The notes beneath the pieces were generated by a model that saw only the letters and a list, made by a program, of their open reading frames with translations, made no database searches and was not told where the DNA came from. From positions 159-64,158 of the forward strand of contig CAYODQ010000004.1 of assembly GCA_964402785.1 (NCBI GenBank): a stretch of DNA of 64,000 bases, in the 5' to 3' direction. Shown one piece after another: positions 1-19,547 of this stretch; positions within the stretch are counted from its first letter, which is position 1; every line of letters begins with the position of its first letter. This stretch comes from an uncultured Planctomycetia bacterium. GTDB taxonomy: Bacteria; Omnitrophota; Gorgyraeia; 2-02-FULL-51-18. The position numbers and the translations under genes are program-made.

Positions 1-15
1 CAGTAGGAAAAAAAT

Positions 16-930
16 ATGCTGATCATAGCCTATGCAATTATTGGATTTCTTGCCCTGTGTGGTGTGGTGTCCATCTACAACTTCTTTACTGGTCGAGCGC
101 TTCACTCGTATGTTTTGAAGAAAGAAAAACATCCTGAGTTAGGAGTCATAAAGGGTGCCGAACCGATTTATCTTAAGAATCACACCGACAAAGCAGTTCT
201 TCTCATTCATGGTTTTATTGGATCCCCGGCCGATTTTGGAAGATTGCCCAACCTTCTTCATGCAGATGGATACACGGTCGTCGCGCCGCTTTTACCGGGT
301 CACGGAACCGATCCAAGGCATTTTTCAAAGACGACCCCGGAAGAGCTAGAGAGTTTTGTCCTTCGCCAATACAGGGAACTTAAAACCCGTTATAGGGAAG
401 TAACTCTTATCGGATTTTCTATGGGGGGCGCCTTAAGCATTTTAACTGCGCTGACCGAAAAGGTAGACCGACTTGTTCTCCTTGCGCCTTACCTTAAGAT
501 TGCACACCAGTGGTACTACGTTTTGCCCGCAGAGTGGCACAATGCGATATTTATAAATATCATTCCTTATACCTATCGGCCCATATCGTTTAAGCAGATC
601 AATAAAAAGGAAGCGATGGGCAATATTGTCGATTACGTCTACGTGTCACTTCGTGGAGCAGACACCGCTATTAAACTTGGTGACAAGGCTTTAAAAGTGG
701 CTGGCAACTTAAGACAACCAACGCTTATTATTCATGGTCTTAAAGATAGGGCCACAGATTATAAGTTTTCTGAGAAACTTACTAAGGATTTACAAAAAAA
801 TACTGAGTGTGTTTTTGTTTCATTGCCAAATACGAACCATATGATGATGTGGGATTATGATGCGGAGATTGCCGAGAAAGAGATATTAGCGTTTATTTCC
901 GGCCAAAGAACAACGGAGGTGGCTCGATGA
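16..930 (+). CDS. Membrane-anchored alpha/beta-hydrolase (esterase/lipase, S33-like)
   Basis: N-terminal hydrophobic helix, HGFIGSPADF oxyanion region and GFSMGG nucleophile elbow (GxSxG). 4-nt overlap with the downstream gene. Confidence 0.75.
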   Translation: MLIIAYAIIGFLALCGVVSIYNFFTGRALHSYVLKKEKHPELGVIKGAEPIYLKNHTDKAVLLIHGFIGSPADFGRLPNLLHADGYTVVAPLLPGHGTDPRHFSKTTPEELESFVLRQYRELKTRYREVTLIGFSMGGALSILTALTEKVDRLVLLAPYLKIAHQWYYVLPAEWHNAIFINIIPYTYRPISFKQINKKEAMGNIVDYVYVSLRGADTAIKLGDKALKVAGNLRQPTLIIHGLKDRATDYKFSEKLTKDLQKNTECVFVSLPNTNHMMMWDYDAEIAEKEILAFISGQRTTEVAR

Positions 931-3900
931 AGATATGTCCTAAATGCAACAAATCATACGATGACACCTGGAAGGTTTGTCTTACTTGCAGCATTCCTAT
1001 CGTAGATGCTGTTGACCAAGAGCTGCTGGACATGAAATCCGAGGTTTCTGAGGTAAGACGTACTATGTCCGATATCAACGTACGTTTAAACCGCATCGAA
1101 TACTTTCTTGAGAACCGTGGTAAGGAAAAGCCGAAACTGGTTCCGGCTACACAGGAAAATATAAGCAAGAAACCTCTCGACTTACAACCCGCAAGTGAAC
1201 CTGTGATCCCCAAAAAAGAGATAATTCTTCCCGCATCCGAGAGGGGAACGAGATTCAAATATATTTGGTCTTTGCCCGGACAGAAGAATATTGAGGGTGA
1301 ATTTACGTGTAGTGGCGTTGAGGAACTGAATGCGCACATTAAAAGCTTGGGCGGCGAACTTGTTCAGATTTTGTGGAAAACCGAAGTAAATCTCAAGCCT
1401 GAACCTAAACAAGATAAACCCATTCCTTCGATTGCTTCTGTAGAAAAGCCGGCAATCAGGCAGACAGTAAAAGCCCCCGAGCCCAAGAGAAGTCTCACAG
1501 AAAACTTTGAACAGGCTCTAGGTGAAAAATGGTTTAACAAACTGGGTATATTTGCGGTCGTTATAGGCGTAGCACTTCTCATCGGATATTCTTTTCAATA
1601 CTTGGGAGCTATCGGAAAAATCAGCATTGGTTTTGCTTTTGGTGTGGGCATGCTCTTATTTGGGCATTACATCGAAAAAAAGAAAGACTTTTCTGTTTAC
1701 GGGAAAGGTCTTATTGGCGGTGGGTGGGCCATCTCATATTTCACAACATTTGCGATGCACCACATTCCAATGGTTCGGCTTGTCGCTAGCCCTTTTCTTG
1801 GCATGGTTCTTTTGATACTCGTTGCGCTTGCGACCGTGTTGGATATATACAGGTACAAGTCGCAAACGGCTACGGGGTTTTCCTATCTACTTATTTTCAT
1901 CACCCTCATGATCGGCCCAGCAACAACCTTTACGATGCTCGCGACTATCCCCGTCGCTCTATCTCTTATATTTTTCATGAAGAAAATGAAATGGATGGAG
2001 TTCGGGTTGTACGGGATGTTCATGACCTATGTGACCTATATGGGCTGGTTCAGAATCGCCAACCTTTCTGGTAGGACGATTCTGACTCACGAACAGTTTG
2101 TGAGTGCAGTTATGTTTTTAGTTTTGTATTGGGCCATCTTCGTTTTTGCCGGATTTTTTTCGGACAAGGGTTCAAAGAGTAAATTATTTGACTCATTTGG
2201 ACTGAATATCGACATGGAGCACATCATTCACGTTCTAAATACATCAATTGCTTCATGCATTGGTTGGATGCTTATCGGAGCGGGGCATACTCAACACCTT
2301 CAACCGGCTCTTCAAGTGTCTTGTGCCGCTTATATCGGATTGACGGTGGCGGGGTATTTCTTAAATAGAAAACTTGTTCTTACGAGCTCGTCTTTTTCTA
2401 TTATTTATGCGGCTGTTTACCTGTCATTGAAATATACCGGGTACACGCTCATCACATCTGAGCTTGTGTTGGCATCAATAGTTTTGCTGATTGGCGTACT
2501 TATGAAAGAAAGCTATTGGCGCACTATTTCCTTGGGTGGCCTTGTTATCGTTGCTATTAAGCTCTGGACGAGTTACGGATTTCCTGCATCAAAGATTGAT
2601 CACGGGCAATTTGTTTTGTCTGCGATATTTTTAGCTACGTTTTGGGTATTTTCTTTATGTGCAGCCTTTTTATCGGATAGGGATTCAAAAAGCAAGGTAC
2701 TTTCGTCCTTTCAACTTGGCGTAAGAATGGATCACCTCATTTATGTTCTTATTGCTTCTATTGCATCTGACGCAGGATGGTTGATTATAAACGCCGGGCA
2801 CAAACAGCACTTGTTTTTAGCGCTTCAGCTAGCTTGTGCGGGCTATGTAGGTTTAACGGCTCTCGGTTATTTCTTCAAGAAAAAACTCATTCTTTTGAGT
2901 TCCTCCTTCGCAGTTATCTATGCGGTGACGTACCTATCGATGAAATATTCGGGGTATAGCCTAACAGTTTCATATCTTTTATTGGCAGAGATAATTCTGC
3001 TCGCCGGTGTTCTTCTTAAAGAAAGCTATTGGAGAGTTTTGTCGTTTGCCGGGCTTATGATAATAATTGCCAAACTTATGACGATCGATAGTTTTTATAC
3101 ACGAAATACGGTTATGGCCTACCACTTAAGCGCGCGGACACTTTTATTCGCATTGGCATTGGTAATGTATTTTATGAACACCTATTTGTACGGCAAATTA
3201 AGATCAAATAATCTATTAACTAAAATCGAAGAAAACCACCCAAACATTATTTCCTATAGCTATCCGCTAATTTATGCCATGGGGACTTGGCTTGATTTTC
3301 CAAAGGTATTAACAGCGCCATGCTGGGTTATTCTTGGAGTTGTTCTTCTTCATCTTGGCGTGGCGAAAAAGAACTATCACCAAAGGATGCAAGGATACAT
3401 CCTGACCACGGGTGCTTTTGTTCGACTGCTCATGTCTAACATGATCATTCAGGGCGGTATTAGTGTATTTAGCTACAGAATTCTAACGGCGATTCCTGTT
3501 ATTTTGATTCTGTATTATTGCTTGATGCTTCTGCAAGACAAAACGACAAAGAGTGTTTTAAGCGATCCCGAAAAGAAGATGGTTTATCTATATCCTTATA
3601 TGGTTTTTGTGGCCATCATGACCCTTGTCTGGTATGAGGCACCAAAAGACATGGTCGCTCCCGTGTGGGGTGTTATGGCAATGATTTATTCGTTGCGGGG
3701 GGTTTATACAAAAGAGAAGCATTACCTCTCCATCAGCTCAATCGCGGCGCTTGCGGCTTGTATGAGGGCGATATTCGTTAATCTTTACCAGGGAAAATAT
3801 CTTGTTGGCGCAGAAAGCAATATCATCCTGCCCATTTTGACAACGGCGTTGCTTTATGGTGGCAACATTTTCTATCTGAGTCAAAAGAATGCCGCAAACG

Positions 3901-4268
3901 AAACTGACGAACCGAAAGAAGGTCGGATTAAGGCATTTCTACATTCCTCTCGGCTAGTTTTTGGCTTTTCGGCGACAGCTCTTTTAACGGCTCTTTTGTA
4001 TATAAAGCTTGATGGGGCGCTATTAACCGTCGGCTTAGGGATTGAAGGTTTGCTGCTATTCTTACCGGGTATTTTTATTAAAGAAAAGCAATGGAGGATC
4101 TACGGCCTTTTGGTTTTACTTTTTACTCTGGCAAAAGCATTCCTGGTTGACCTGAGGCAGTTGAGCACGATCCACTATATTTTGTCATTAATTGCTCTAG
4201 GGTTGGCACTTCTGTTTGTATCGTATATCTATACAAAGCACAAAGATAAGATCAAGAAACTTATATGA
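927..4268 (+). CDS. Large polytopic membrane protein with N-terminal zinc ribbon (CPKC...CLTC), DUF2339-like
   Basis: CxxC-x14-CxxC at the N-terminus, then a coiled/charged linker, then >20 predicted TM helices. 'ENFEQALGEKWFNKLGIFAVVIGVALLIGYSF' matches the DUF2339 pattern. Contains an internal ~165-aa tandem duplication. Confidence 0.6.
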   Translation: MKICPKCNKSYDDTWKVCLTCSIPIVDAVDQELLDMKSEVSEVRRTMSDINVRLNRIEYFLENRGKEKPKLVPATQENISKKPLDLQPASEPVIPKKEIILPASERGTRFKYIWSLPGQKNIEGEFTCSGVEELNAHIKSLGGELVQILWKTEVNLKPEPKQDKPIPSIASVEKPAIRQTVKAPEPKRSLTENFEQALGEKWFNKLGIFAVVIGVALLIGYSFQYLGAIGKISIGFAFGVGMLLFGHYIEKKKDFSVYGKGLIGGGWAISYFTTFAMHHIPMVRLVASPFLGMVLLILVALATVLDIYRYKSQTATGFSYLLIFITLMIGPATTFTMLATIPVALSLIFFMKKMKWMEFGLYGMFMTYVTYMGWFRIANLSGRTILTHEQFVSAVMFLVLYWAIFVFAGFFSDKGSKSKLFDSFGLNIDMEHIIHVLNTSIASCIGWMLIGAGHTQHLQPALQVSCAAYIGLTVAGYFLNRKLVLTSSSFSIIYAAVYLSLKYTGYTLITSELVLASIVLLIGVLMKESYWRTISLGGLVIVAIKLWTSYGFPASKIDHGQFVLSAIFLATFWVFSLCAAFLSDRDSKSKVLSSFQLGVRMDHLIYVLIASIASDAGWLIINAGHKQHLFLALQLACAGYVGLTALGYFFKKKLILLSSSFAVIYAVTYLSMKYSGYSLTVSYLLLAEIILLAGVLLKESYWRVLSFAGLMIIIAKLMTIDSFYTRNTVMAYHLSARTLLFALALVMYFMNTYLYGKLRSNNLLTKIEENHPNIISYSYPLIYAMGTWLDFPKVLTAPCWVILGVVLLHLGVAKKNYHQRMQGYILTTGAFVRLLMSNMIIQGGISVFSYRILTAIPVILILYYCLMLLQDKTTKSVLSDPEKKMVYLYPYMVFVAIMTLVWYEAPKDMVAPVWGVMAMIYSLRGVYTKEKHYLSISSIAALAACMRAIFVNLYQGKYLVGAESNIILPILTTALLYGGNIFYLSQKNAANETDEPKEGRIKAFLHSSRLVFGFSATALLTALLYIKLDGALLTVGLGIEGLLLFLPGIFIKEKQWRIYGLLVLLFTLAKAFLVDLRQLSTIHYILSLIALGLALLFVSYIYTKHKDKIKKLI

Positions 4269-5242
4269 TGAATCTAAAACTGCGGCATATATTTCTAATC
4301 CTAAGCCTCTTGGTTTGTTTAAGCTCAATAGCGCTTATTATGGTCAAAGGACACCCTGAAGATCGAGTCAGCTTGGATTCTGTTTCAGAGATTGGTGAGG
4401 GGTTTTTAAGCAGTGTGAATAAAGCGGGGCATATCTTTGTCTCTACGGATGACCAAGAGGAAATGGAAATAGGGGATCAGATAAATACGAAAATACTAAA
4501 AACCCAACCAGGCAACCAAACAGGCAATGCGCTGTTGGAAAAATATGTGAATGATGTTGGAAACAGAGTTGTTGAAAATGTAAAAAGGCCAGGAATTAAA
4601 TATAAGTTTCATGTTGTAGAAGGCTTTTATCCCACAGCGCGTTCTGTCGCAGGCGGGCATGTCTATGTGACGACAGGCCTAATAAAAACTCTCAAATCGG
4701 AGGCCGAATTGGCGGGGGTTTTGGCTCATGAAATAACCCATGTAGACGCAAAACATTGCTTTAACGCAATTCAATTTAAAGTTCAAAATGGAAAGATCGA
4801 AGAATCTGGCTATGGGGCTCTTGCTGAGATCGGGTATGACGTGTTTTTTAAGCCGGGGTTTTCTGAAGCACAAGAAATAGAGGCGGATGCTGGAGGAGTT
4901 TATTTGGCATATCGAGCAGGTTACCACCCAATGGCAATTATTTATGCTTTTGAGCGTATCAATAAGGATGAGTTATCAAGGTCGGGTCAGGATAATTCAG
5001 CGACGTTAGTAGGGGACACGATGAATGCCGTTGGTGGGCTGCTTGTGAGGTATTTCAGCTCACATCCACCTACGGAAGATCGCATCAACATGATAAAAAG
5101 ATATATCGCTGATAACAAGCTGATGAGTTCAAATCAGCGATTTTATATTGGACAGAGAAATTACGAAGAAAAAATAGCCTACAAGATCAAGCCATATAGG
5201 GATGAATTAAAGAAGGAATATGTCCTGAAAGGAGCTTTATGA
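4265..5242 (+). CDS. M48-family zinc metallopeptidase (HtpX/BepA-like)
   Basis: N-terminal signal anchor and HEITHVDAKH (HExxH) motif with downstream acidic residues. ATGA overlap with both neighbours. Confidence 0.7.
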   Translation: MMNLKLRHIFLILSLLVCLSSIALIMVKGHPEDRVSLDSVSEIGEGFLSSVNKAGHIFVSTDDQEEMEIGDQINTKILKTQPGNQTGNALLEKYVNDVGNRVVENVKRPGIKYKFHVVEGFYPTARSVAGGHVYVTTGLIKTLKSEAELAGVLAHEITHVDAKHCFNAIQFKVQNGKIEESGYGALAEIGYDVFFKPGFSEAQEIEADAGGVYLAYRAGYHPMAIIYAFERINKDELSRSGQDNSATLVGDTMNAVGGLLVRYFSSHPPTEDRINMIKRYIADNKLMSSNQRFYIGQRNYEEKIAYKIKPYRDELKKEYVLKGAL

Positions 5243-6549
5243 ACAAAAAAGCGGTGCAATGGCTTCATAAAGAGTTGCCTGATTTGGTAAGTAAGGGGGT
5301 TATTTCTCAATCATCCGCCGATAATTTGCGTCAGCATTACCGCGACGTAAAAAGCGCGGATAAAAAATGGTTTGTCATCATTTTGTGCAGCGTGCTTGGG
5401 GCGCTGCTCATTGGGCTTGGTATTATTTTACTTTTTGGCCACAACTGGGAAGAATTGTCTCGTCCCGTGCGTGCGGTACTTTCTCTGTTGCCTTTAATGG
5501 TTGGGCAGGGACTGGCGATGTGGGTCGTGTTAAAAAGGCCTGAGTCTCAAGCTCTCAAAGAGGGCACAGCAACATTCTTGAGTCTTATGGTTGGGGCCTC
5601 TATCGCGCTTATTAGTCAAACATACAACATCCCCGGAGATACACCGTCATTCATTCTAATGTGGATGTTGCTCATTGTTCCGCTGACCTATCTTATGAGG
5701 GCTACGATACCGGCAGCTATTTTTGTTGCTGGAATTTCAGCTTGGGCCTGTCATTTTTGGGATGAGCCGCTCAAGGCGTTTCTTTTTTGGCCACTCTTGG
5801 TGATTGTAATTCCTCATTTTATTTGGTCATTACGACAGGAAAAATACACTATTCGTGCAGCGATCTTGGCGCTCGTTATGGCGGTGTCTGTGAGTGTTGG
5901 AGCACATTTTACTTTGGGCAGGTCATGGCCGGGATCCTGGGTTGTTATCTATTCAAGCCTTATTGCAGGGTTCTACCTTCTTGGTGCCTGGGAGTTTAAG
6001 GAAGTTTCGACAAACTGGCAGAGACCTTTTCAAGTTCTGGGAGGGTTGGGTATTTTCATCATAATGTTTATTCTTACTTTTCGGTGGCCATGGGAATCAG
6101 CGGCTGGGAAGTATTGGTATGCTAAGTATGACTTATCTCCTTGGATGGCTATCCCGGACCATATATTAAGTTTCTTGTTGGTGGCTGGTGCGCTGCTATT
6201 GTTCTATCAGTATGCCAAACGTCAGGACTGGATGAGGACGCTATTTGGAGTATTGCCCTTACTGGCTTTGGTTGGCTACGCTTTTAGCGGAACTTCAGCG
6301 GTCTTTCCCATGCTGTTATTCAATTTCTATTTACTCTCTGTCAGCGTCTTTCGTTTGATGACAGGAATACGGACAAATAATCTGAGTGTTATTAATACAG
6401 GTATGGTGATGTTGTCAGCGCTGGTTCTCGCAAGGTTTTTTGATAGTGAGATCAACTTCGTCCTCAAGGGACTTGTTTTTATATTTATTGGCGTTGGTTT
6501 TCTGGCGACAAATGTCATTATTTTGCGCCGCAAGGGAGGTGCAGCATGA
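5239..6549 (+). CDS. DUF2157-family membrane protein (soluble N-domain plus polytopic DUF4401-like membrane region)
   Basis: ~40-aa soluble N-terminus (VQWLHKELPDLVSKGVIS...NLRQHY) followed by ~12 TM helices. The layout and the gene context (next to a GDYXXLXY protein) are typical of the DUF2157/DUF4401/GDYXXLXY triad. Confidence 0.5.
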   Translation: MNKKAVQWLHKELPDLVSKGVISQSSADNLRQHYRDVKSADKKWFVIILCSVLGALLIGLGIILLFGHNWEELSRPVRAVLSLLPLMVGQGLAMWVVLKRPESQALKEGTATFLSLMVGASIALISQTYNIPGDTPSFILMWMLLIVPLTYLMRATIPAAIFVAGISAWACHFWDEPLKAFLFWPLLVIVIPHFIWSLRQEKYTIRAAILALVMAVSVSVGAHFTLGRSWPGSWVVIYSSLIAGFYLLGAWEFKEVSTNWQRPFQVLGGLGIFIIMFILTFRWPWESAAGKYWYAKYDLSPWMAIPDHILSFLLVAGALLLFYQYAKRQDWMRTLFGVLPLLALVGYAFSGTSAVFPMLLFNFYLLSVSVFRLMTGIRTNNLSVINTGMVMLSALVLARFFDSEINFVLKGLVFIFIGVGFLATNVIILRRKGGAA

Positions 6550-7109
6550 GAAAAGAACTTGTTGTTGGACTTTTTGCTGGTTTGATTGCACTGCAAATTG
6601 GTTTACCCGTATCTATGATCGCCAAAAGAGAATCAACACTAAGGGATGGCGCTGTTTTTCGTTTTAAAACCGCACCCGTAGACCCTTATGATGCTTTTCG
6701 TGGTCGATATGTAGCCATCAGAGCCGAGATAAACAAGGTCAAAATACCAGAAGGGGGGAATCTTAAATACGGACAGAAAGTTTATGCGCAGCTGACCGTT
6801 GATGAGAAAGGGTTTGCTCAAGTCTCGCAGATTACATTGCAGAGGCCCAAAGACTCTGCATATTTGACCGCGTCTGTTACATATCCTACCGGCAATGACA
6901 TCGGACTTAATTTGCCGATTGACCGTTATTACATGGAAGAGAAGGCAGCGCCTCGTGCTGAACAAGCGTACCGGGAGCATAGCAGACGCGATAAACAAGA
7001 TGCGTATATAACGGTAAAGATAAAGGATGGCTTTGCGGTCGTAGAGGGTTTATATGTGGGTGATCAGAAAATCGAAGATTTGGTGAGGCTCAAAGTCAAT
7101 ACAGCCTAA
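6546..7109 (+). CDS. GDYXXLXY-domain protein (variant GRYVAIRA)
   Basis: N-terminal TM anchor then 'PVDPYDAFRGRYVAIRAEI', which resembles the family signature DPrdllrGDYvxLxY. 187 aa, ATGA-coupled to the upstream gene. Confidence 0.5.
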   Translation: MRKELVVGLFAGLIALQIGLPVSMIAKRESTLRDGAVFRFKTAPVDPYDAFRGRYVAIRAEINKVKIPEGGNLKYGQKVYAQLTVDEKGFAQVSQITLQRPKDSAYLTASVTYPTGNDIGLNLPIDRYYMEEKAAPRAEQAYREHSRRDKQDAYITVKIKDGFAVVEGLYVGDQKIEDLVRLKVNTA

Positions 7110-7380
7110 TGATAAGTAACTTCTAGATGATGAAATTTGGGATACAACTGGGATACAGTCACTGCCACCGATGGACGAAATTAGACGAAAGTAGAAGAAC
7201 AGAGTTTTAGAGATTTATTGTCGTAACCCTTCTGAACTCGTATACTAATGCAAGTATGCGAATCTCTCCGAAAATAAACGAAAAAGAAAAATTCTTCTCA
7301 GAGCACAAGCACAAAATCTGGGGCGTAATGTAGGGCTGTTTCAGTTTTTGTGCGCCTAAGGTGGGTCGAAATATGCTATA

Positions 7381-9192
7381 GTGAGCGGCGTGACCGCTTA
7401 TACAACAAAAATAAAATTATTCAGGCCGTCCTGGAAGTTTTTGGTGCTGATAGTTTTTGTCGGTTTTATCGCCTATTCCAATTCGTTCCACGCTTCCTTC
7501 CACATGGATGATGAGGATTCGATTATCAAAAATGTGGCTATAAGGCACCTTTGGGACATTCGCGCGATCTGGGATTTCTATCCCAGCCGGTTCCTGACGT
7601 ATTTTACGTTCGCCATCAATTATGCTGTTGGCGGGCTCAATGTTGTGGGGTATCACTTTTTCAACATTTTCCTCCATCTGCTTTCGGGCATTCTCGTTTA
7701 TCAGCTGGCATTGTTAACCATTTCTCTGATACCGTTAGATGACGAGAAGTTGAAGGGGAGGCCCGAGTTGATGGCTGTTTTCGCCGCGCTCATTTTCGTA
7801 TCCCATCCTCTGCAGGTTGGGGCTGTTACTTATATCGTTCAGCGAGCCGTTGTGATGAGCTCATTTTTTTATCTACTTGCGATGGTTTGTTACATTCGCG
7901 GCGTCAGAGACAATTTACGCAGTTATCGGCGGGCCGCTCTGGGAGCTGCGGTGTTGTCTCTGTTTTCCAAAGAGATGGCGTTGACGCTGCCAGTTGCTCT
8001 CCTTGTTTACGATCGGACATTTTTTCGCGAAAAAAAAGGCGCTTTTTTGCGGCTCATGCCGTTTTTTATTGTAATGCTGCTAATGCCGGCCTCACTTGTC
8101 TTTTCCAAACATTTCAATCTAAAGTCATTCGAGCTTGCCATTGATTTGAGTTCTCGTCCCGCGCCCTTGAATTATTTGCTGACACAATTCAGAGTTTTTC
8201 TTACGTATACAAAGCTCCTGCTCTTTCCTTTACACCAGAACTTCGATTATGACTATCGTCTTTCAAAAACATTGTTTGAGCCTGGAGTGCTTGTGGGGCT
8301 GGGGATGGTTATATCATTATTGTTATCCGGATTGATCTTGCTCAAAAAAAATCACCCTTTTAAAGGGTTCGTGTTGATTTGGTTTTTCTTGTTATTGCTC
8401 CCAGAATCTAGCATTTTTCCGATACACGACCTCGCAGTTGAGCATAGGCTCTATCTCGTCGTGGCAGCGTTTTCGTTATTATTCGCAACCAGCCTTTTCT
8501 CTGTTTTGTCGGAAAAAGCCAGCGGCTATATTCTTTTATTTTTTGTCAGCTTCTTATTCCTATTGACTTACGACAGGAATATCGTGATGAGCGATGAGGT
8601 TAGCCTTTGGACAGATACAATCCAAAAATCTCCCAACAGCGCATCGGCTTACCTGGCGCGGGGAACAGCTTACAACGCCCGCGGGCAGATGGATCTCGCA
8701 ATTGAGGATTTCGACCGCTGTATCGAGATCGAGCCCCATTTTGTCCGAGCCTATAACAATCGGGGGATCGCTTATTACACAAAAGGGGATTTTTCACGTG
8801 CTCTTGAAGATTATAATAAGCTTCTGAAACTTAATCCAAAGTTTTCCTCAGCCTACCTTAATCGGGGGGCTGTTTATTATGCGCAGGGTAATGTGGGCAA
8901 GGCCTTTGAGGATTGGACCAAGGCGATAGAACTCGACCCGCTCTCCGCAGAAAACGCCTATAGCAATCGCGCCGTGATCTTTGGTGCTCGGGGTGATTTG
9001 CAGGGAGCTCTGCATGATCTCAATGCTGCGGTCGGATTGAACCCTTTAAACCCAAATTGGCGGTTGGCTCGCGCTCGCGTCCATTACAAGATGGATAATA
9101 AAAAGGCTTGCTTGGCGGATATACAAGAAGCGGAAAAAATCACACGAGAACTCCCCGAAGACATTCTGGCTGTGCTCAAAAATTTGAGGTAG
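7381..9192 (+). CDS. TMTC-like protein: GT-C (PMT/GT39-like) membrane domain fused to C-terminal TPR repeats
   Basis: N-terminal multi-TM region with an acidic loop motif (HMDDEDSII). At least six TPR units (AYLARGTAYNARGQMDLAIEDFDRCIEIEP..., AYNNRGIAYYTKGDFSRALEDYNKLLKLNP...). GTG start. Confidence 0.7.
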   Translation: MSGVTAYTTKIKLFRPSWKFLVLIVFVGFIAYSNSFHASFHMDDEDSIIKNVAIRHLWDIRAIWDFYPSRFLTYFTFAINYAVGGLNVVGYHFFNIFLHLLSGILVYQLALLTISLIPLDDEKLKGRPELMAVFAALIFVSHPLQVGAVTYIVQRAVVMSSFFYLLAMVCYIRGVRDNLRSYRRAALGAAVLSLFSKEMALTLPVALLVYDRTFFREKKGAFLRLMPFFIVMLLMPASLVFSKHFNLKSFELAIDLSSRPAPLNYLLTQFRVFLTYTKLLLFPLHQNFDYDYRLSKTLFEPGVLVGLGMVISLLLSGLILLKKNHPFKGFVLIWFFLLLLPESSIFPIHDLAVEHRLYLVVAAFSLLFATSLFSVLSEKASGYILLFFVSFLFLLTYDRNIVMSDEVSLWTDTIQKSPNSASAYLARGTAYNARGQMDLAIEDFDRCIEIEPHFVRAYNNRGIAYYTKGDFSRALEDYNKLLKLNPKFSSAYLNRGAVYYAQGNVGKAFEDWTKAIELDPLSAENAYSNRAVIFGARGDLQGALHDLNAAVGLNPLNPNWRLARARVHYKMDNKKACLADIQEAEKITRELPEDILAVLKNLR

Positions 9193-9201
9193 TAGTAATT
9201 A

Positions 9202-9918
9202 TTAAATAGTGGCTGAGATGGTTGGGCTCGGCTGATCAAGGGATGACTTGACGGCAGAAAATTTTTGAATAACAAAAATTGCCTGAGTGAATACTGTTGC
9301 CCAGATGATTTTGCAGCTTAAAACAGTGCCGTGTTGCGACGCTACCCTTTCAACCTCACCGATTGTTAGAGCGCGCTCATCAAAAAATATCCAGGATCCA
9401 AGTAATTCTGATAGGCGCCGGCTGATTTTGTACAGCCAGGTGGGTGTGGGGAAAGTTATCACGGCCACGCCTCCAGGTTTGAGAATATTCATATGCGCTC
9501 GAACAGCCTTTTTCATATCCTCGTGACCGAAGTGCTCGATCAATCCGATGCTGAGCGTTACATCCACTTGCGGCGAATGCTCAAAATCCAAAATATCTTT
9601 TTCATGAAAATGCAGAGACTTGCCGCAAAGCCGGCCGGGTTTAGTGGGATATTTGTCTATGATGTGATACTCCGCTGGGTTGAGCGAAAAATTAAGAATT
9701 GGGTAAACAAAGCTGTTTGCGCCACCAAATTCTGCGATGACAATAGATCCTTTGCCGAACAGGAGTTTTTTTAACTGCCGACTGACATGTCTACTGAGGA
9801 TGCCACGCGTCACTCCGGCCAAAGGATAGGGGTGTGTATAATAGTGATGCCAGTTAGTTTTTAGGTCGCGACGCTTCATTTGAATTAAAAGTATAGTAGA
9901 TTCTTGGGGTGAGGTCAT
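9202..9918 (-). CDS. Class I SAM-dependent methyltransferase
   Basis: Motif I 'IVIAEFGGANS', a post-I acidic residue (HIIDK) and motif II/III 'DVTLSIGLIEHF...LKPGGVAVITFP'. Confidence 0.55.
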   Translation of the reverse strand: MTSPQESTILLIQMKRRDLKTNWHHYYTHPYPLAGVTRGILSRHVSRQLKKLLFGKGSIVIAEFGGANSFVYPILNFSLNPAEYHIIDKYPTKPGRLCGKSLHFHEKDILDFEHSPQVDVTLSIGLIEHFGHEDMKKAVRAHMNILKPGGVAVITFPTPTWLYKISRRLSELLGSWIFFDERALTIGEVERVASQHGTVLSCKIIWATVFTQAIFVIQKFSAVKSSLDQPSPTISATI

Positions 9919-9985
9919 TTAAAATTTCGTGTGATGTGGTATGCTTTGATAGGGTTTTAAGAAGACGGAGTTATCGCGAGAAAAA

Positions 9986-10600
9986 GTGATTATGACAATA
10001 GTTGTTGCTACCCAGAATAAAGATAAATGCCTTGAGATTAAAACGTTGCTCAGAGATCTCAACATCAGGGTTTTGTCCTTGGAGGATTTTTCTAAGTCCT
10101 CAAAAGTTGTTGAAAATTGCGATACCTTTGAAGGTAACGCTGAAAAAAAAGCGCGGGTGTATTCTAAGCGGACTAAATCTCTTTGCGTGGCAGACGATTC
10201 GGGCTTGATGGTTCGCGCGCTGAATGGCAAGCCGGGTGTTTATTCAGCAAGGTACGCGGGAAAAAATTGCACTTATGATGACAATAATCGTAAGGTTCTG
10301 AGCGCGCTTGCTCGCGCGCCCTGGCCTAAGCGGACTGCTAAATTTGTTTCGGTTGTCTCTGTCTATGACAATGGCCGCAAGATCAAGACCGTGCGAGGGG
10401 AGTGTGTGGGACGTATCGGGTTCATGCCCAAAGGAGACAATGGATTTGGCTATGACCCGATCTTCATTCCAAAAGGCTCGCCCAAAACGTATGCCGAGAT
10501 GACCAGCGAGGCTAAGAACGGCATTAGTCATCGCGGGAAAGCGCTTCGCAAGGCAAAAAAGGTTATCCAGGTTTATCTTAAGAAGAAAGGATCTAGCTGA
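9986..10600 (+). CDS. rdgB: Non-canonical purine NTP pyrophosphatase (dITP/XTP pyrophosphatase, Ham1/RdgB family)
   Basis: N-terminal 'IVVATQNKDKCLEIKTLL', 'TFEGNAEKKAR' and C-terminal 'FGYDPIFIPKG...TYAEM...KNGISHRGKALRK' are hallmark RdgB motifs. Confidence 0.85.
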   Translation: MIMTIVVATQNKDKCLEIKTLLRDLNIRVLSLEDFSKSSKVVENCDTFEGNAEKKARVYSKRTKSLCVADDSGLMVRALNGKPGVYSARYAGKNCTYDDNNRKVLSALARAPWPKRTAKFVSVVSVYDNGRKIKTVRGECVGRIGFMPKGDNGFGYDPIFIPKGSPKTYAEMTSEAKNGISHRGKALRKAKKVIQVYLKKKGSS

Positions 10601-13154
10601 CGATCTTTTGAACGATCCCGCCCAAAGTCTTTCCCACGGCTCGTCCCGACGGAAGTATATTTTTTTCGAACACAGGCGCTTTTAAATTACCTCTGACACG
10701 ATGTTGAGAGATGAATCGGCCGGCTTCATTGACCATAAAATTCGCAAGGCCTCCGGTAGCCTGAGCACCGCGAAACACATCTTCCGAGTAATTGATGTCC
10801 ATGAGCATATCCAGATCGCCATTCAGATGAATATCCCCCTCTAAGGATAGATTCACCGAGTCGCCAAGCAAGCTTAGTCTAGGAGCGTGTATTTTTTCGT
10901 TCTCCAGAGTGAATTCGGAGGTGAGTTCATGAAATGTCACCCAATCCAGACCTTCGACGCGGACAAGAGGGAGTTTGCCCATGGCCTTGAATTTGTCCGT
11001 TTGGAAGATAAAGCCGTTCGTGATGCTGAGAGTCCCGCGGCCACGCCAGCTGGGGCGATTTTGTAAGATCCCGCTAACTTCTGTATTCAATAGGAGCGTC
11101 CCGGATAATTTACTTTGCGAGCCCGGCAGATCCTTCGCGAGCTCTTTTAAATTGACCTGGTTGACGAACAGTTTGGCCACGAATGGGGTGGGTGATTTGG
11201 ATAGATCAAATGCCCAGCTGCTGCCCATGGGGCCGCCATAAAAATCAGCGTGAAAATAGGGGATATTCAGGATCTTTTGCGCCATGCGCAGCTGAAGTTG
11301 AACGGATCTCAATTTGAATTTTTGATTGAATACCACCGACTTGGAGCTTGCATCCATTTGAATATTTGCCGCAAGCCAATTATCAACGCTGCCGTTAAAG
11401 GTGAATGCGCCCTCCAGCGTGCCATCGACGGCTGTGCGCTTTAGATCCGGATAGGTTTGAGCGGCCCAGGCAAGCGATCTTCGTAGATCGATAAGCGCCT
11501 GCCCTTGAAGATTTAGGTGTGGTTTTTGCCAATCGATCACTTGCCCCCTGAACGCCAGGGACGCGCCAGCCATGCGCAGGGTGGCGTTGGATAAATGAAT
11601 ATCGGAGCCCAGCACTTTAAAATCAGAAAAAAATCTCAGTCTTTGTGAGCGAGCCTTGATCGTTCCGCTAGGCGGGGTATTTTTCGGGATACTGCCATTG
11701 ATCTGCACGGCTTCAGCGCCCAGCATAAAATTTAGATCCTGGATCCGAAGTCCGGATGGATCCATAAAAAAATCGCCGGAGACTTGTTTTAGGCGGATAT
11801 TTTTAGGCTCGCTTGTGACAGCTCCTTCCGATAAACGGATCTTGTGTTGGGTTTCGACCCGAGCACCTTTTTTGAGCGAACCTGTGAGTTGTGTCAGTGT
11901 CTGGCACTGACCTTCAATTTTAAGATCTTTTATTTTGTCCAAAGTATCTTTGGGAATAAGCGCGCGCACCTGATCCATGGTCAGCGCGGATCGGATCTCT
12001 CCGTTCACCAAAAGCTCTTTGAACGAGCGGACATGGCCGACCGCTTCAAAGGCGATATTTTTATATTCCCCACGCAGAGAACGCACCGTCAGAAGGTCTT
12101 TCTCAAAACGGATCTCTCCGTTGAGATCTTCGATCTTGTCGATCTGTTGTGACAGCTTGAAGGCATTGACGCGAGCCATAGAAAGGCTGCCTTTATATTG
12201 TTCAAATTTACGAAGTATGGGGTCGAACACGCCCTCAGCCTCTAGTTTCATATGACCCTGATAAAAGCTTGGGGAGGTCGATATCTCGGCTTCTTTGAGA
12301 TCCGCATGGGTATGAAAAAGTAGCAGCGAATGCTGTCCGCTCCAAACTTGGGTTTCCAGATACAATCTGCCTTTTTGGAGCTGAATAAAATTATTTTTTT
12401 GATAGGCGCGCAGCCATTCGGGCACTTTTTTGCTATGCGTTTTAAGATTAAAAGTGTAGTTACCTTTTTTAAGGTCCCAATTTCCGGTCAGCGATACGTT
12501 GGCGTAGGAGTCTTGGCCGAGGCTGACGTTTCCATCAAATCGAATGACAGGTGGCTTGTGAAAGCCCATCCGTATATTAATCGAGCGGAGTGTTTCAGCT
12601 ACCGGTGATGTTTTGGTCGGGCTAATACGAACGACGCCATTGATGATCTCAATTTGCTCCAAATAAACATTCTCGGGCAGGAATGTATCAGGGCCGGTGG
12701 CAATATCCTCCAATTTATAATTCGGCTGATTGCTGATGATCGGGACGCTGATCTGTCCGGAGATCGCTGTTTTGGGGGCTTCGGGCTCTGCTTTTTTGGG
12801 TTGGGCGATCACGAGATCATAAACAGGCGTATCCAGCACAAAGTGGTCGATGATGATCTTTTTTTGTTGGAAAAAGGGGATCAGCTTGACGTTGACTGCG
12901 ACGCGCTTGGCCGAAAAAAGGAGAGACCCGTCTTCCTTGTACCAACGCACACCTTGCAAGTTGAGTCCTGAGAAAGGCAGGTAAACAGCTTTGTCAAAGT
13001 GAATATCTTGATGCGTGATCCGCTTGAGCTCAAGAATAGCCTTTTCTCGTAGTTGGCCGGGAAACAGCCCGATTTGGACATAAGTTAGGCCGAGCGCCGC
13101 CACGAAAGAAAATGCCAGGAACCATTTGAATGCCCTGCGATGTCGAGATTTCAT
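10593..13154 (-). CDS. AsmA-family / TamB-like envelope-assembly protein
   Basis: 853 aa with a single N-terminal TM anchor, then a long beta-rich region containing repeated G/N/S-rich segments. The N-terminal ~100 aa resemble the AsmA N-domain. Confidence 0.45.
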   Translation of the reverse strand: MKSRHRRAFKWFLAFSFVAALGLTYVQIGLFPGQLREKAILELKRITHQDIHFDKAVYLPFSGLNLQGVRWYKEDGSLLFSAKRVAVNVKLIPFFQQKKIIIDHFVLDTPVYDLVIAQPKKAEPEAPKTAISGQISVPIISNQPNYKLEDIATGPDTFLPENVYLEQIEIINGVVRISPTKTSPVAETLRSINIRMGFHKPPVIRFDGNVSLGQDSYANVSLTGNWDLKKGNYTFNLKTHSKKVPEWLRAYQKNNFIQLQKGRLYLETQVWSGQHSLLLFHTHADLKEAEISTSPSFYQGHMKLEAEGVFDPILRKFEQYKGSLSMARVNAFKLSQQIDKIEDLNGEIRFEKDLLTVRSLRGEYKNIAFEAVGHVRSFKELLVNGEIRSALTMDQVRALIPKDTLDKIKDLKIEGQCQTLTQLTGSLKKGARVETQHKIRLSEGAVTSEPKNIRLKQVSGDFFMDPSGLRIQDLNFMLGAEAVQINGSIPKNTPPSGTIKARSQRLRFFSDFKVLGSDIHLSNATLRMAGASLAFRGQVIDWQKPHLNLQGQALIDLRRSLAWAAQTYPDLKRTAVDGTLEGAFTFNGSVDNWLAANIQMDASSKSVVFNQKFKLRSVQLQLRMAQKILNIPYFHADFYGGPMGSSWAFDLSKSPTPFVAKLFVNQVNLKELAKDLPGSQSKLSGTLLLNTEVSGILQNRPSWRGRGTLSITNGFIFQTDKFKAMGKLPLVRVEGLDWVTFHELTSEFTLENEKIHAPRLSLLGDSVNLSLEGDIHLNGDLDMLMDINYSEDVFRGAQATGGLANFMVNEAGRFISQHRVRGNLKAPVFEKNILPSGRAVGKTLGGIVQKIVS

Positions 13155-17261: not shown

Positions 17262-18003
17262 ACGCCTTCAAGATAAAGTTGCGATCGTCACGGGTGCCAG
17301 TCGCGGTATCGGCAGGGAGCTTGCGCTGGTTTTTGCACAAGAGGGCGCAAAATTAGTACTCACAGCACGCTCGTTGGATCCGCTCAGATCTTTATCAGAT
17401 GAAATTGTAAAAGCGGGCGGCTTTGAGCCTCTTTGTATTGAATTGGATGTCAAAAATTCCGAAAAAGTGGACGAAATGGTGGACAAAACTCTTGACAAGT
17501 TTAGTCGTGTTGATATACTCGTCAACAATGCGGGCGTGACGCGCGATGGTTTGCTTTTGCGCATGTCCGATGACGACTGGGATGAAGTGCTGGATACAAA
17601 TTTAAAAGGCGCTTTTCACTGTCTACGCGCTGTCGCTAAGCCGATGATGCGTCAGCGAGCAGGAAGAATCATTAACATGGCCTCGGTGATCGGGTTGATC
17701 GGAAATGCCGGTCAGGCCAATTATGCAGCCAGCAAAGCAGGTTTGATCGCTTTGACAAAGTCGGCGGCCAAAGAGCTTGGTTCACGCAATATTTTGATCA
17801 ACGCGATAGCGCCGGGATTCATCGATACGGATATGACGCAGGCGCTGTCCGAAGAGGTTAGAAAAGCAATTTTGAAAAATATACCGACCGGCGTTTTTGG
17901 GAAACCGGTCGACGTCGCGAGAGCAGCGGTTTTTCTCGCTTCGGATGAAAGCAGTTTTGTGACAGGGCAGGTTCTCACCGTTGACGGTGGGATGGTCATG
18001 TGA
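17245..18003 (+). CDS. fabG: 3-oxoacyl-ACP reductase
   Basis: SDR 'VTGASRGIGRELA' and 'NAG' motifs plus the 'YAASKAG' catalytic YxxxK. Located in the fab operon. Confidence 0.9.
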   Translation: MSSKIKRLQDKVAIVTGASRGIGRELALVFAQEGAKLVLTARSLDPLRSLSDEIVKAGGFEPLCIELDVKNSEKVDEMVDKTLDKFSRVDILVNNAGVTRDGLLLRMSDDDWDEVLDTNLKGAFHCLRAVAKPMMRQRAGRIINMASVIGLIGNAGQANYAASKAGLIALTKSAAKELGSRNILINAIAPGFIDTDMTQALSEEVRKAILKNIPTGVFGKPVDVARAAVFLASDESSFVTGQVLTVDGGMVM

Positions 18004-18029
18004 AAAATTTAACGAGAGGAGCTTAATCG

Positions 18030-18278
18030 ATGAGCGATACAGCAGGTAAAGTAAGGTCCATCATTGCAGAGCAGCTGGGAGTTAAGATCGAGGAAGTCAC
18101 TGACTCAGCGTCTTTTGTGGACGATCTAGGTGCTGATTCATTGGACACGGTTGAGCTTGTGATGGCTCTCGAGGAAGAGTTTGGTATCGAGATCCCCGAT
18201 GAAGACGCCGAAAAGATGACCAACGTCGGCGAAGCTGTCCGTTACGTGGATCAGAAAGCCACCAAAAGCTCTAAGTAA
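18030..18278 (+). CDS. acpP: Acyl carrier protein
   Basis: '[26 protein letters not shown]' with the DSL phosphopantetheine attachment site, 82 aa. Confidence 0.92.
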
Positions 18279-18299
18279 CTTTTTTAGTCTAATATAGCA

Positions 18300-19547
18300 A
18301 TGTCATCCTATCCGCGTGTCGTAGTCACAGGCATAGGCGCGGTCACCCCGATTGGCAACACAGCCCAAGATTTTTGGGCTGCGGCAGTATCTGGTAAAAG
18401 CGGCGTTGATAGAATAACCGCTTTTGACCCGGCTGCCTTCGATTGTAAAATTGCCGCTGAAATAACTAATTATGATCCCAAGCTAACCATTCCCGTTAAA
18501 GAGTCCAGGAGGATGGAGCGCTTTTGCCAATTTGCCGTGACGGCCGCGGGTGAGGCGATAAAGGACGCAGCATTGGACATGAGCAAAGAAGATCCTCATG
18601 CCGTGGGCGTCATCATTGGTTCCGGCATCGGCAGCTTACGCATCGTCGAAGAGACGCATGCGCAGTACATGGCCAAAGGCCCCGATAAGTTCACCCCTTT
18701 TATGATCCCACTTCTTATTATCAACATGGCCTCTGGATGGGTCTCGATGTTGCATGGCTTAAAAGGCCCCAACACAGCGGTTGTGAGTGCTTGTGCAACC
18801 GGTACACATGCCATCGGCGAAGCGTATCGTATGATCAAGCACGGGTATGCCAAGGTTATGGTGTCGGGCGGAACGGAGAGTTGTGTCACGCCGCTAGGTA
18901 TTGGCGGTTTTTGTGCGCTCAAAGCCTTATCCAAAAGAAATGATGATCCTCAAAAAGCTTCCAGACCCTTTGATAAAGATCGTGACGGTTTTGTGATGGG
19001 AGAGGGCGCGGGCATTGTTGTTCTGGAGGAGCTGGAGCATGCCAAGGCGCGCGGCGCTAAGATCTATGGAGAGGTAGTGGGATATGCGCTAAACGGCGAT
19101 GCTTTTCACATGACAGCCCCTCATCCGGAAGGCGAGGGGGCAGTGTATTGTATGAATCTGGCATTAAAAGATGCCCGCATGAAGCCGGAAGATATCACGT
19201 ATGTAAACGCGCACGGAACTTCCACCGAGCTCAATGACAAGATAGAAACTTTGGCGATCAAAAAAACATTCGGTGATCATGCTAAAAAATTACAGATCAG
19301 CTCAACAAAGTCTATGACGGGCCATACATTGGGCGCTGCCGGTGGCATCGAATTTGTTGCGTGCTGTTTGTCACTCCAGCATCAAACGCTTCATCCGACC
19401 ATCAATCAGATCACGTCCGATCCGGAATGTGATCTGGATTATATCCCTAATACCGCGCGCAAGACACCGGTTGAAGTTTGTTTGTCCAATTCTTTGGGGT
19501 TTGGCGGTCACAACACCACCATCATAGTTAAAAAGTTCAGGGGGTAA
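18300..19547 (+). CDS. fabF: 3-oxoacyl-ACP synthase II
   Basis: 'RVVVTGIGAVTPIGN', 'SACATGTHAIG' (active Cys), 'NAHGTST' and 'GHTLGAAG' motifs. Confidence 0.92.
   Translation: MSSYPRVVVTGIGAVTPIGNTAQDFWAAAVSGKSGVDRITAFDPAAFDCKIAAEITNYDPKLTIPVKESRRMERFCQFAVTAAGEAIKDAALDMSKEDPHAVGVIIGSGIGSLRIVEETHAQYMAKGPDKFTPFMIPLLIINMASGWVSMLHGLKGPNTAVVSACATGTHAIGEAYRMIKHGYAKVMVSGGTESCVTPLGIGGFCALKALSKRNDDPQKASRPFDKDRDGFVMGEGAGIVVLEELEHAKARGAKIYGEVVGYALNGDAFHMTAPHPEGEGAVYCMNLALKDARMKPEDITYVNAHGTSTELNDKIETLAIKKTFGDHAKKLQISSTKSMTGHTLGAAGGIEFVACCLSLQHQTLHPTINQITSDPECDLDYIPNTARKTPVEVCLSNSLGFGGHNTTIIVKKFRG

Follow-up and report, generated by a model that had tools for sequence, protein, structure and literature searches.

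A five-gene envelope operon of an Omnitrophota bacterium as a candidate arc3/aas-type locus of membrane-lipid defence

What could unite a serine hydrolase, a giant polytopic protein, a zinc metalloprotease and two further membrane proteins in a single, tightly packed operon? The question is raised by a DNA stretch of 64,000 nucleotides (hereafter the window; contig CAYODQ010000004.1 of assembly GCA_964402785.1, positions 159 to 64,158) from an uncultured bacterium of the phylum Omnitrophota, which opens with five genes, g1 to g5, coding for proteins of the Hydrolase_4, DUF2339, M48, DUF2157 and GDYXXLXY families, respectively (Table 1). The initial annotation, made from the sequence alone, saw in them an uncharacterized module for membrane signalling, proteolysis or envelope remodelling. 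We propose, with a probability of roughly 0.55, that the operon is the Omnitrophota version of an arc3/aas-type locus that defends against lysophospholipids and membrane damage, with new accessory parts. Repair of phospholipid damage is favoured over generic signalling because the neighbours of such genes are LplT-Aas, lipid esterases, a CDP-alcohol phosphatidyltransferase and Arc3B; of the functions first suggested, remodelling thus came close in spirit.

An Arc3A-family protein among lipid-repair genes

The product of g2 matches DUF2339 (PF10101) with an E-value of 3.8e-28 and 99.1 bits, against a gathering cut-off of 33.6. DUF2339 is the Arc3A family, PF10101 being the criterion by which Ting et al. 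recognized Arc3A homologs (PMC8926400). In Pseudomonas aeruginosa and P. protegens, the most critical gene for surviving Tle3, a type VI secretion system (T6SS) phospholipase, is arc3A, and genetic and lipidomic evidence indicates that Arc3A stops the build-up of lyso-phosphatidylethanolamine (lyso-PE) and monolyso-cardiolipin under phospholipase attack; divergent Arc3A homologs complement the arc3A defect (PMC8926400). An independent study of 2025 found that arc3A and aas guard against lipase effectors (PMC12663445). Both the Arc3A family and its link to aas were already in the literature, and the term "uncharacterized" does not hold for DUF2339. It does hold for DUF2157 and GDYXXLXY, on whose function the literature searched contained nothing, DUF2157 being mentioned solely in work on phage shock protein (PSP) systems (PMC11237479).

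Like Arc3A of P. aeruginosa (PA5114, reportedly with 35 transmembrane helices), g2 is very large and polytopic, with some 22-25 hydrophobic segments in a hydropathy scan. In Pseudomonas, the known partner of Arc3A is Arc3B (PA5113; DUF3999, PF13163) and the linked aas gene is PA3267; the estA esterase gene abuts the arc3 locus, and aas genes adjoin arc3 in many bacteria (PMC8926400). Genes for a fused LplT-Aas and for an esterase adjoin close relatives of g2, which echoes these estA/aas neighbourhoods. The locus studied here differs from Arc3 in its host phylum, Omnitrophota, in having no Gac/Rsm regulation, and in a zinc ribbon, an internal duplication, a coupled hydrolase and the DUF2157-GDYXXLXY pair, none of which appears in the Arc3 papers (PMC8926400, PMC12663445).

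The related loci compared with the window are designated by L-numbers. In L002, L003 and L095, genes for a MarR regulator, LplT-Aas, Hydrolase_4, a protein of 161 amino acids (aa), DUF2339 (81% identical to g2) and a 712-aa M48 protease follow one another in this order. The LplT-Aas protein of L002 (1167 aa) joins MFS, Acyltransferase and AMP-binding domains in the fused LplT-Aas architecture, and its top NCBIfam match is acyl-[ACP]--phospholipid O-acyltransferase (E 7e-117). In the LplT/Aas repair system of Escherichia coli and other Gram-negatives, lysophospholipids flipped inward by LplT are re-acylated by Aas. The fused form heads the operon of the nearest relative and recurs beside the DUF2157-GDYXXLXY pair, but in these loci it is joined to Arc3A, proteases and DUF proteins, outside the classical two-component system. 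L004 and L005 (54 and 45% identity to g2, respectively) both retain DUF2339-M48, and in L004 the surroundings also include Hydrolase_4, Hexapep and AMP-binding genes. In the distant L006, tblastn reveals an M48-like reading frame just downstream of DUF2339. Outside the clade of L002, L004 and L005, DUF2339 stands alone or with a weak DUF3999 match, and DUF3999 adjoins DUF2339 in L115. Downstream of the M48 gene, L002 also carries a DAGK_cat/YegS-type lipid kinase (17957-18781) and a VTT/DedA-domain protein (20786-21406).

In a survey of the DUF2157-GDYXXLXY pair encoded by g4 and g5, a GDYXXLXY alignment was run against a single genome of each species; this yielded 80 loci, whose partner genes were called by purpose-built family hidden Markov models (HMMs). 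About a dozen pairs are embedded in lipid-repair clusters, LplT-Aas lying beside the pair in 9-11 species (including L007, L019-L021 and the Victivallales), and at least six distinct gene orders from Omnitrophota, Victivallales and Verrucomicrobia join the pair with LplT-Aas, a hydrolase or DUF2339. L007 and L008 read LplT-Aas, Hydrolase_4, Hexapep, DUF2339, DUF2157, GDYXXLXY and CDP-alcohol phosphatidyltransferase; L020 reads LplT-Aas, hydrolase, Hexapep, DUF2157, GDYXXLXY, M28 and DUF2339; L116-L118 read ACT, DUF2339, DUF2157 and GDYXXLXY; the verrucomicrobial L088 reads LplT-Aas, DUF2157, GDYXXLXY and hydrolase; and L019, L021 and L041 hold partial versions of these clusters. Five Victivallales species have LplT-Aas, a lipoprotein of about 890 aa, DUF2157, GDYXXLXY, hydrolase, DUF2339 and DUF3999, the last being Arc3B (PF13163, E 3.8e-18 in L062 and weaker in L090). 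The window order (hydrolase, DUF2339, M48, DUF2157, GDYXXLXY) is shared with L014, whose contig begins within a frameshifted DUF2339. The expectation of a conserved neighbourhood was borne out in part: the association of DUF2339 with DUF2157/GDYXXLXY, met again elsewhere in varied orders, is more than a local coincidence, and the five genes form no single conserved block.

Unbiased all-against-all clustering of every ORF (open reading frame) around the pair returned as top recurrent neighbours LplT-Aas-like proteins (11 loci), alpha/beta hydrolases (9) and DUF2339 (6 loci, with L014 in addition), which all lie on the same strand. By our own uncomputed estimate, chance would place a single-copy gene of a genome of a few Mb there in well under one in 80 loci. 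A neighbour-joining tree of DUF2157 places the linked loci in two clades distant from each other. Tetratricopeptide repeat (TPR) proteins, ABC ATPases, histidine kinases, sigma-54 activators and an MscS-like channel were considered as partners and set aside as promiscuous families or as synteny within one subclade. The MscS-like mechanosensitive channel lies about 3 kb downstream of GDYXXLXY in L029, L032, L033, L044, L045, L047 and L048, all of one Omnitrophota subclade, and its recurrence is probably simple synteny. In L007, the CDP-alcohol phosphatidyltransferase gene (10555-11139) overlaps the GDYXXLXY gene by 4 nucleotides (nt). The conserved lipoprotein whose gene separates LplT-Aas from DUF2157 in the Victivallales clusters with arc3AB (about 890-990 aa; L090 6007-8679, L051, L058 and L062, truncated in L050) has a lipobox signal peptide and many repeats rich in W, P and Y (WPL, FPFYY, VPLLY), and matches no Pfam family.

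Some relatives lie next to genes of another kind. Upstream of MarR-DUF2339-M48, L004 carries genes for TPR-S, a ThsB-type TIR protein, a non-specific endonuclease and a nucleotidyltransferase (4399-9094), and L002 carries a phage terminase and an HTH-M78 gene upstream of MarR (1-2666). Such genes would suit an anti-phage or other mobile defence system on a variable island, an explanation that we consider very improbable given that none of the five proteins matches a PADLOC anti-phage model, that the core genes also occur in housekeeping contexts (L005, L009, L012) and that nucleotide composition over window positions 1-7100 shows no anomaly.

The predicted esterase, the M48 protease and the DUF2157-GDYXXLXY pair

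The first gene would provide the lipid-cleaving activity of the locus. The g1 protein matches Hydrolase_4 (PF12146) with an E-value of 1.5e-19 and 70.7 bits against a cut-off of 27, as well as other Pfam models of alpha/beta hydrolases; it has a nucleophile elbow, GFSMG, at residue 133, and the Asp/His triad motifs HGLKDRATD and NTNHMM in its C-terminal sequence. Among solved structures it comes nearest to bacterial monoacylglycerol lipases and Est30-type carboxylesterases, and it can be described as resembling a monoacylglycerol-lipase/lysophospholipase-like esterase. The L002 ortholog, 90% identical, begins 4 nt downstream of LplT-Aas, as does that of L095. Hydropathy points to a single N-terminal transmembrane helix (residues 2-20). 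The esterase slot of L007, L020 and L041 is taken by soluble orthologs that have no such helix, and positive residues follow the helix of g1; on both counts, the catalytic domain of g1 is predicted to face the cytoplasm, and probably does. At least three alpha/beta-hydrolase subtypes occupy the slot across the loci. The 161-aa membrane-protein ORF that separates hydrolase and DUF2339 in L002 (9487-9972) is missing from the window; its assignment to DUF2157 was rejected, the match being sub-threshold (E 0.006) and the in-house family HMM giving no support.

The DUF2339 protein that follows is of a particular subtype. The zinc ribbon proposed by the initial annotation is supported by the exact conservation of its four cysteines (C4/C7/C18/C21) in the M48-coupled DUF2339 proteins of L002, L004 and L005, while the corresponding Pfam match stays below threshold (E 0.008). 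The ribbon, which is cytoplasmic and is followed by a coiled-coil-like segment, is missing in other DUF2339 subtypes, including those most often found beside DUF2157-GDYXXLXY. The body of g2 contains two copies of a module of about 148 aa with about four to five helices (56% identity between copies, E 2e-49). This duplication, which the 1113-aa ortholog of L002 appears to have in common and which relatives of about 840-870 aa lack, explains part of the difference in length between g2 and the 837-874 aa proteins of L004 and L005. The remainder includes a lineage-specific N-terminal insert, RGTRFKYIWSLPGQKNIEGEFTCSGVEELNAHIKSLGGELVQILWKTE, which sits between the zinc ribbon/coiled-coil region and the membrane body and is confined to the proteins of the window and L002.

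The M48 protease g3 matches PF01435 with an E-value of 4.7e-24 and 85.7 bits, well above the cut-off of 20.3. It carries the zinc motif HEITH at residues 155-159, and E204 and E206, positions of the third-ligand Glu, are invariant among orthologs. One N-terminal helix makes it a single-pass protein by hydropathy scan, with a predicted periplasmic catalytic domain. The closest solved structures are 3c37, an uncharacterized Geobacter M48 protease (E 2e-22), and the protease domain of BepA. With BepA, LoiP, HtpX and 3c37 it shares HExxH and a downstream Glu, the membrane tether and the probably periplasmic catalytic domain, but it lacks the C-terminal TPR domain of BepA and the multi-pass topology of HtpX. 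Its match to the BepA NCBIfam model spans residues 65-172 only, with 70.7 bits against an equivalog cut-off of 570, and every other NCBIfam score is likewise far under the equivalog cut-off. Both g3 and the M48 protein of L014 miss the C-terminal domain of the 410-712-aa orthologs; no TPR domain was found in the 325 aa of g3, and only a weak trace of one in the 712-aa L002 ortholog.

Ten relatives of full-length type (L094-L103) were recovered when metagenome contigs were scanned with an M48 alignment. DUF2339 lies immediately upstream in all eight that have usable upstream DNA, at M48 identities of 27-78%; of the other two, L098 is cut at the contig end, and the 531 upstream nt of the 5'-truncated L097 contain no DUF2339. 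The nine remoter, partial M48 matches (L104-L112) have no DUF2339 upstream. DUF2339-M48 adjacency is thus recorded at 12 loci (the window, L014, L002, L004, L005, L094, L096 and L099-L103). This M48 subfamily is found only beside DUF2339, and is a dedicated, obligate neighbour of the zinc-ribbon subtype, taking the gene position that Arc3B (DUF3999) holds in Proteobacteria and Victivallales. An M28 metallopeptidase gene is found inside the LplT-Aas/hydrolase/DUF2157-GDYXXLXY/DUF2339 clusters of two other Omnitrophota species (L020 10552-11541, L021 5600-6589), and a second, unrelated peptidase family has thus been recruited to such loci.

DUF2157 and GDYXXLXY form an obligate two-protein unit. 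In 78 of the 80 species, GDYXXLXY is immediately preceded on its own strand by a DUF2157 gene, the other two loci being cut by contig ends, and start and stop overlap by 4 nt in 65 of these 78 pairs. The partner is always a protein of about 436 aa in which DUF2157 is fused to an unannotated helical domain. In g4, a protein of roughly 12 helices, the match to PF09925 (E 2.7e-35) covers residues 15-157 only, and the C-terminal domain accounts for about 280 aa; the AlphaFold2 (AF2) model is all-helical (pLDDT 83, pTM 0.75), and Foldseek finds nothing significant for it in the PDB (best E 0.10; TM-score <0.35). The g5 protein matches PF14345 (E 1.6e-28), and its AF2 model places a transmembrane helix at residues 2-32 before the beta-rich domain (pLDDT 83, pTM 0.72), again without a significant PDB match in Foldseek (best E 0.056; TM-score <0.35). 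The idea that GDYXXLXY could be an MCE/MlaD-like lipid-binding barrel was dropped as unsupported, given the missing fold match. The signature DPYDAFRGRYVAIRAEI is present in g5, where the GDY motif is degenerate (GRYVAIRA); the other motifs quoted earlier (GFSMG, the four cysteines, HEITH) were all found as well.

Among the families named for the operon, PF10101, PF09925, PF14345 and PF01435 score above their gathering thresholds, and four of the five assignments were right. The fifth, DUF4401 (PF14351), has no match at E<=1 in the C-terminal part of g4 nor, at E<=0.1, in any of 40 family members or of 10 distant partners. The DUF2157/DUF4401/GDYXXLXY triad cited in the initial annotation is represented here by adjacent and coupled DUF2157 and GDYXXLXY without DUF4401, and differs further in the fusion of the DUF2157 module of g4 to its helical domain. 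GDYXXLXY is a large family (3862 representatives at 50% identity). An exact-match search with g5 recovered a single 758-bp contig only, and a search for fusions found just rare C-terminal ankyrin repeats (P0408, P0431), uninformative on lipids. Ankyrin-repeat proteins also stand beside distant DUF2339 genes (L113 11576-13795, L114 6813-7832), which might amount to a weak Rosetta-stone connection of DUF2339 with GDYXXLXY.

A unification of DUF2157 with the sensory transmembrane domain at the N-terminus of LiaI/LiaF, proteins of PSP/Lia envelope-stress systems, has been reported (PMC11237479). This raises the alternative of envelope-stress signalling with regulated proteolysis, whereby DUF2157 would be a LiaI/LiaF-like sensor, GDYXXLXY its periplasmic partner, and M48 a protease cleaving a membrane regulator, for example a zinc-ribbon DUF2339 acting like an anti-sigma factor. 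The cytoplasmic ribbon and coiled-coil-like segment of g2, the obligate position of M48 beside g2-type proteins and the MarR regulators upstream in L002 and L004 all fit such a scheme. However, g4 shares with Lia only the DUF2157 (LiaI-LiaF-TM) module: no sigma factor, two-component system (LiaRS included), PspA/LiaH or Toastrack is present in the operon or conserved beside it. Moreover, the subtypes of DUF2339 most often paired with DUF2157-GDYXXLXY are those without the ribbon, and lipid enzymes rather than regulators recur as neighbours. We regard the signalling scheme as improbable.

Coupling, boundaries and mosaic origin

The ORF listing of the window places all five genes on the + strand at the coordinates first given, with an ATGA start/stop overlap at each of the four junctions (927, 4265, 5239 and 6546), and ORFs, overlaps and Pfam assignments bear out the description as a single operon for envelope proteins, co-oriented and tightly packed. 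Strong Shine-Dalgarno-like sites lie within the preceding gene before g2 (GGAGGT), g4 (AAGGAG) and g5 (GGGAGGTG); inspection of the junction sequence upstream of g3 showed none evident. The genome is compact, 4-nt overlaps occurring in 12 of 46 same-strand neighbour pairs of the window, or in 8 of 42 when the operon is left aside. Four in succession would arise by chance with a probability of about 0.001. This improbability supports a single operon; the further claim of "fixed stoichiometry" does not follow from overlaps that are frequent in this genome.

With g1 starting 15 nt from the beginning of the window, and with a source contig that exceeds the window by only 393 nt, this sequence does not fix where the operon begins on its 5' side. 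The first six nucleotides, CAGTAG, are suggestive of the tail of an LplT-Aas gene, a weak hint. At the 3' end, similarity to L014 and L007 stops close to the end of g5, and the following gap of 270 nt contains a stable stem-loop (about 7309-7353, about -20 kcal/mol) and, at 7218-7246, a promoter-like site. An Rfam scan of positions 1-10000 matched zero families. Across the window, promoter-like sites are no commoner than expected from shuffling, and terminator-like sites are in excess, yet none bounds the operon. The next gene, g6, which together with the gap occupies 7110-9192, encodes 603 aa with a polytopic N-terminal half without Pfam match and C-terminal TPR repeats. Some 3.5 kb downstream of the operon, an 853-aa AsmA/YhdP/DUF748-like protein is encoded on the - strand (10593-13154), and an AsmA-like gene is likewise near the DUF2157-GDYXXLXY pair in L012. 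This family is implicated in inter-membrane phospholipid transport.

Table 1. Features of the operon and its borders in the window (aa, amino acids; TM, transmembrane)
Feature	Position	Strand	Basis or remark
Possible final sense codon and stop (CAG TAG) of a cut upstream gene	1-6	+	Aligns with the CAG TAA end of L002 LplT-Aas
g1, membrane-anchored alpha/beta serine hydrolase, 304 aa	16-930	+	PF12146 Hydrolase_4
g2, giant polytopic DUF2339 protein, 1113 aa, N-terminal CxxC...CxxC zinc ribbon	927-4268	+	PF10101
Soluble insert of about 50 aa in g2	~1266-1420 (residues ~114-165)	+	Alignment of DUF2339 relatives
Tandem internal duplication in g2	2127-2570 and 2640-3083 (residues ~401-548 and ~572-719)	+	Self-comparison
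g3, membrane-anchored M48 zinc metalloprotease, 325 aa	4265-5242	+	PF01435
g4, polytopic DUF2157 protein, 436 aa	5239-6549	+	PF09925 in the N-terminal third
g5, GDYXXLXY protein, 187 aa, one N-terminal TM helix and beta-rich domain	6546-7109	+	PF14345
Intergenic stretch at the 3' end of the operon	7110-7380		Synteny loss at 7087-7089, promoter-like site, stem-loop

Named homologs of g2, g4 and g5 are annotated as Candidatus Omnitrophota, and the operon itself is a mosaic of three units, namely g1, g2 with g3, and g4 with g5. Positions 10-5222 are syntenic with L002 at 73-82% DNA identity, and positions 5227-7089 with L007 at 82%, which puts the breakpoints at the g3/g4 junction and where g5 ends. 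In the lineage of the window, a zinc-ribbon DUF2339 and a shortened M48 came to precede the DUF2157-GDYXXLXY pair. In L007, the nearest DNA relative, the pair follows a different DUF2339 subtype of 756 aa; hence some DUF2339 stayed adjacent to the pair across a swap of subtypes.

Such a history invites the explanation that the fusion is fortuitous, i.e. that hydrolase, DUF2339-M48 and DUF2157-GDYXXLXY are co-transcribed through a recent rearrangement and that the pair is unrelated to phospholipid repair. This explanation, which takes in its favour the two breakpoints, with L002-like DNA on the left and L007-like DNA on the right, as well as the abundance of 4-nt overlaps in this genome, shares several points with the case against a lipid-defence locus. 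The mosaic makes the g3/g4 junction evolutionarily recent; L004, L005, L100 and L102 have DUF2339-M48 without the pair; and about 68 of the 80 pairs (about 85% of species) stand alone in unrelated contexts, with no lipid gene nearby. The linked cases may amount to 2-4 independent events in phyla related to the Planctomycetes-Verrucomicrobia-Chlamydiae (PVC) group, in which the linkage survived many rearrangements. Also weighing against a role in lipid defence, LplT-Aas is not in the window, whose DNA ends upstream of g1, and its presence is taken from a relative alone, whose own match reaches 392 bits against an equivalog cut-off of 1221; Arc3B, the sole experimentally supported partner of Arc3A, is absent here, with M48 downstream of g2 instead; the experimental support comes from Pseudomonas homologs and none from any Omnitrophota protein; and the folds of g4 and g5, matching nothing solved, lend a lipid role no structural support. 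A fortuitous fusion is nevertheless disfavoured by a pair that adjoins DUF2339, LplT-Aas/hydrolase or both in six or more gene orders and two distant clades, that has DUF2339, LplT-Aas and hydrolase as its top neighbours in unbiased clustering, and that kept its adjacency to DUF2339 through the subtype swap. We hold it to be unlikely, though well worth keeping in mind.

A possible route to lysophospholipid defence

The biochemical roles that we propose for this organism are inferred from gene structure, family membership and conserved neighbourhoods. Under the preferred reading, an arc3/aas-type defence locus, the operon would protect the cytoplasmic membrane from phospholipase A damage and lysophospholipid stress. 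LplT-Aas, the presumed head of the operon, would flip lysophospholipids inward and re-acylate them, and g1 may deacylate those left un-re-acylated. By analogy with its Pseudomonas homologs, g2 would act as Arc3A and stop lyso-PE and monolyso-cardiolipin from building up. As a periplasmic partner of Arc3A, g3 could serve in quality control or turnover of the huge g2 protein, or else degrade periplasmic toxins captured by Arc3A. Finally, g4 and g5 might form an accessory sub-complex for sensing membrane perturbation or handling lipids. That the pair is an unrecognized accessory sub-complex of Arc3A/LplT-Aas and that the Omnitrophota M48 replaces Arc3B, for example by degrading membrane-captured phospholipase toxins, is put forward tentatively, at clearly less than even odds.

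Three features are absent from the Arc3 papers (PMC8926400, PMC12663445): an obligate M48 where Arc3B would stand, a lysophospholipase-like esterase joined by translational coupling, and DUF2157-GDYXXLXY found repeatedly within such clusters. DUF2157, GDYXXLXY and a dedicated protease would here be tied for the first time to a lipid-repair system, which gives the two widespread DUF2157 and GDYXXLXY families a first testable context. As for the mechanism by which Arc3A, with its 25-35 transmembrane helices, stops lysophospholipid build-up, the M48 protease, the esterase and the pair offer experimental handles. The defence pathway against interbacterial antagonism known from Pseudomonas would be extended to uncultured phyla of the PVC group, Omnitrophota among them, and, if true, the accessory pair and the replacement of Arc3B by M48 would portray it as an expanded, modular system of "membrane lipid immunity".

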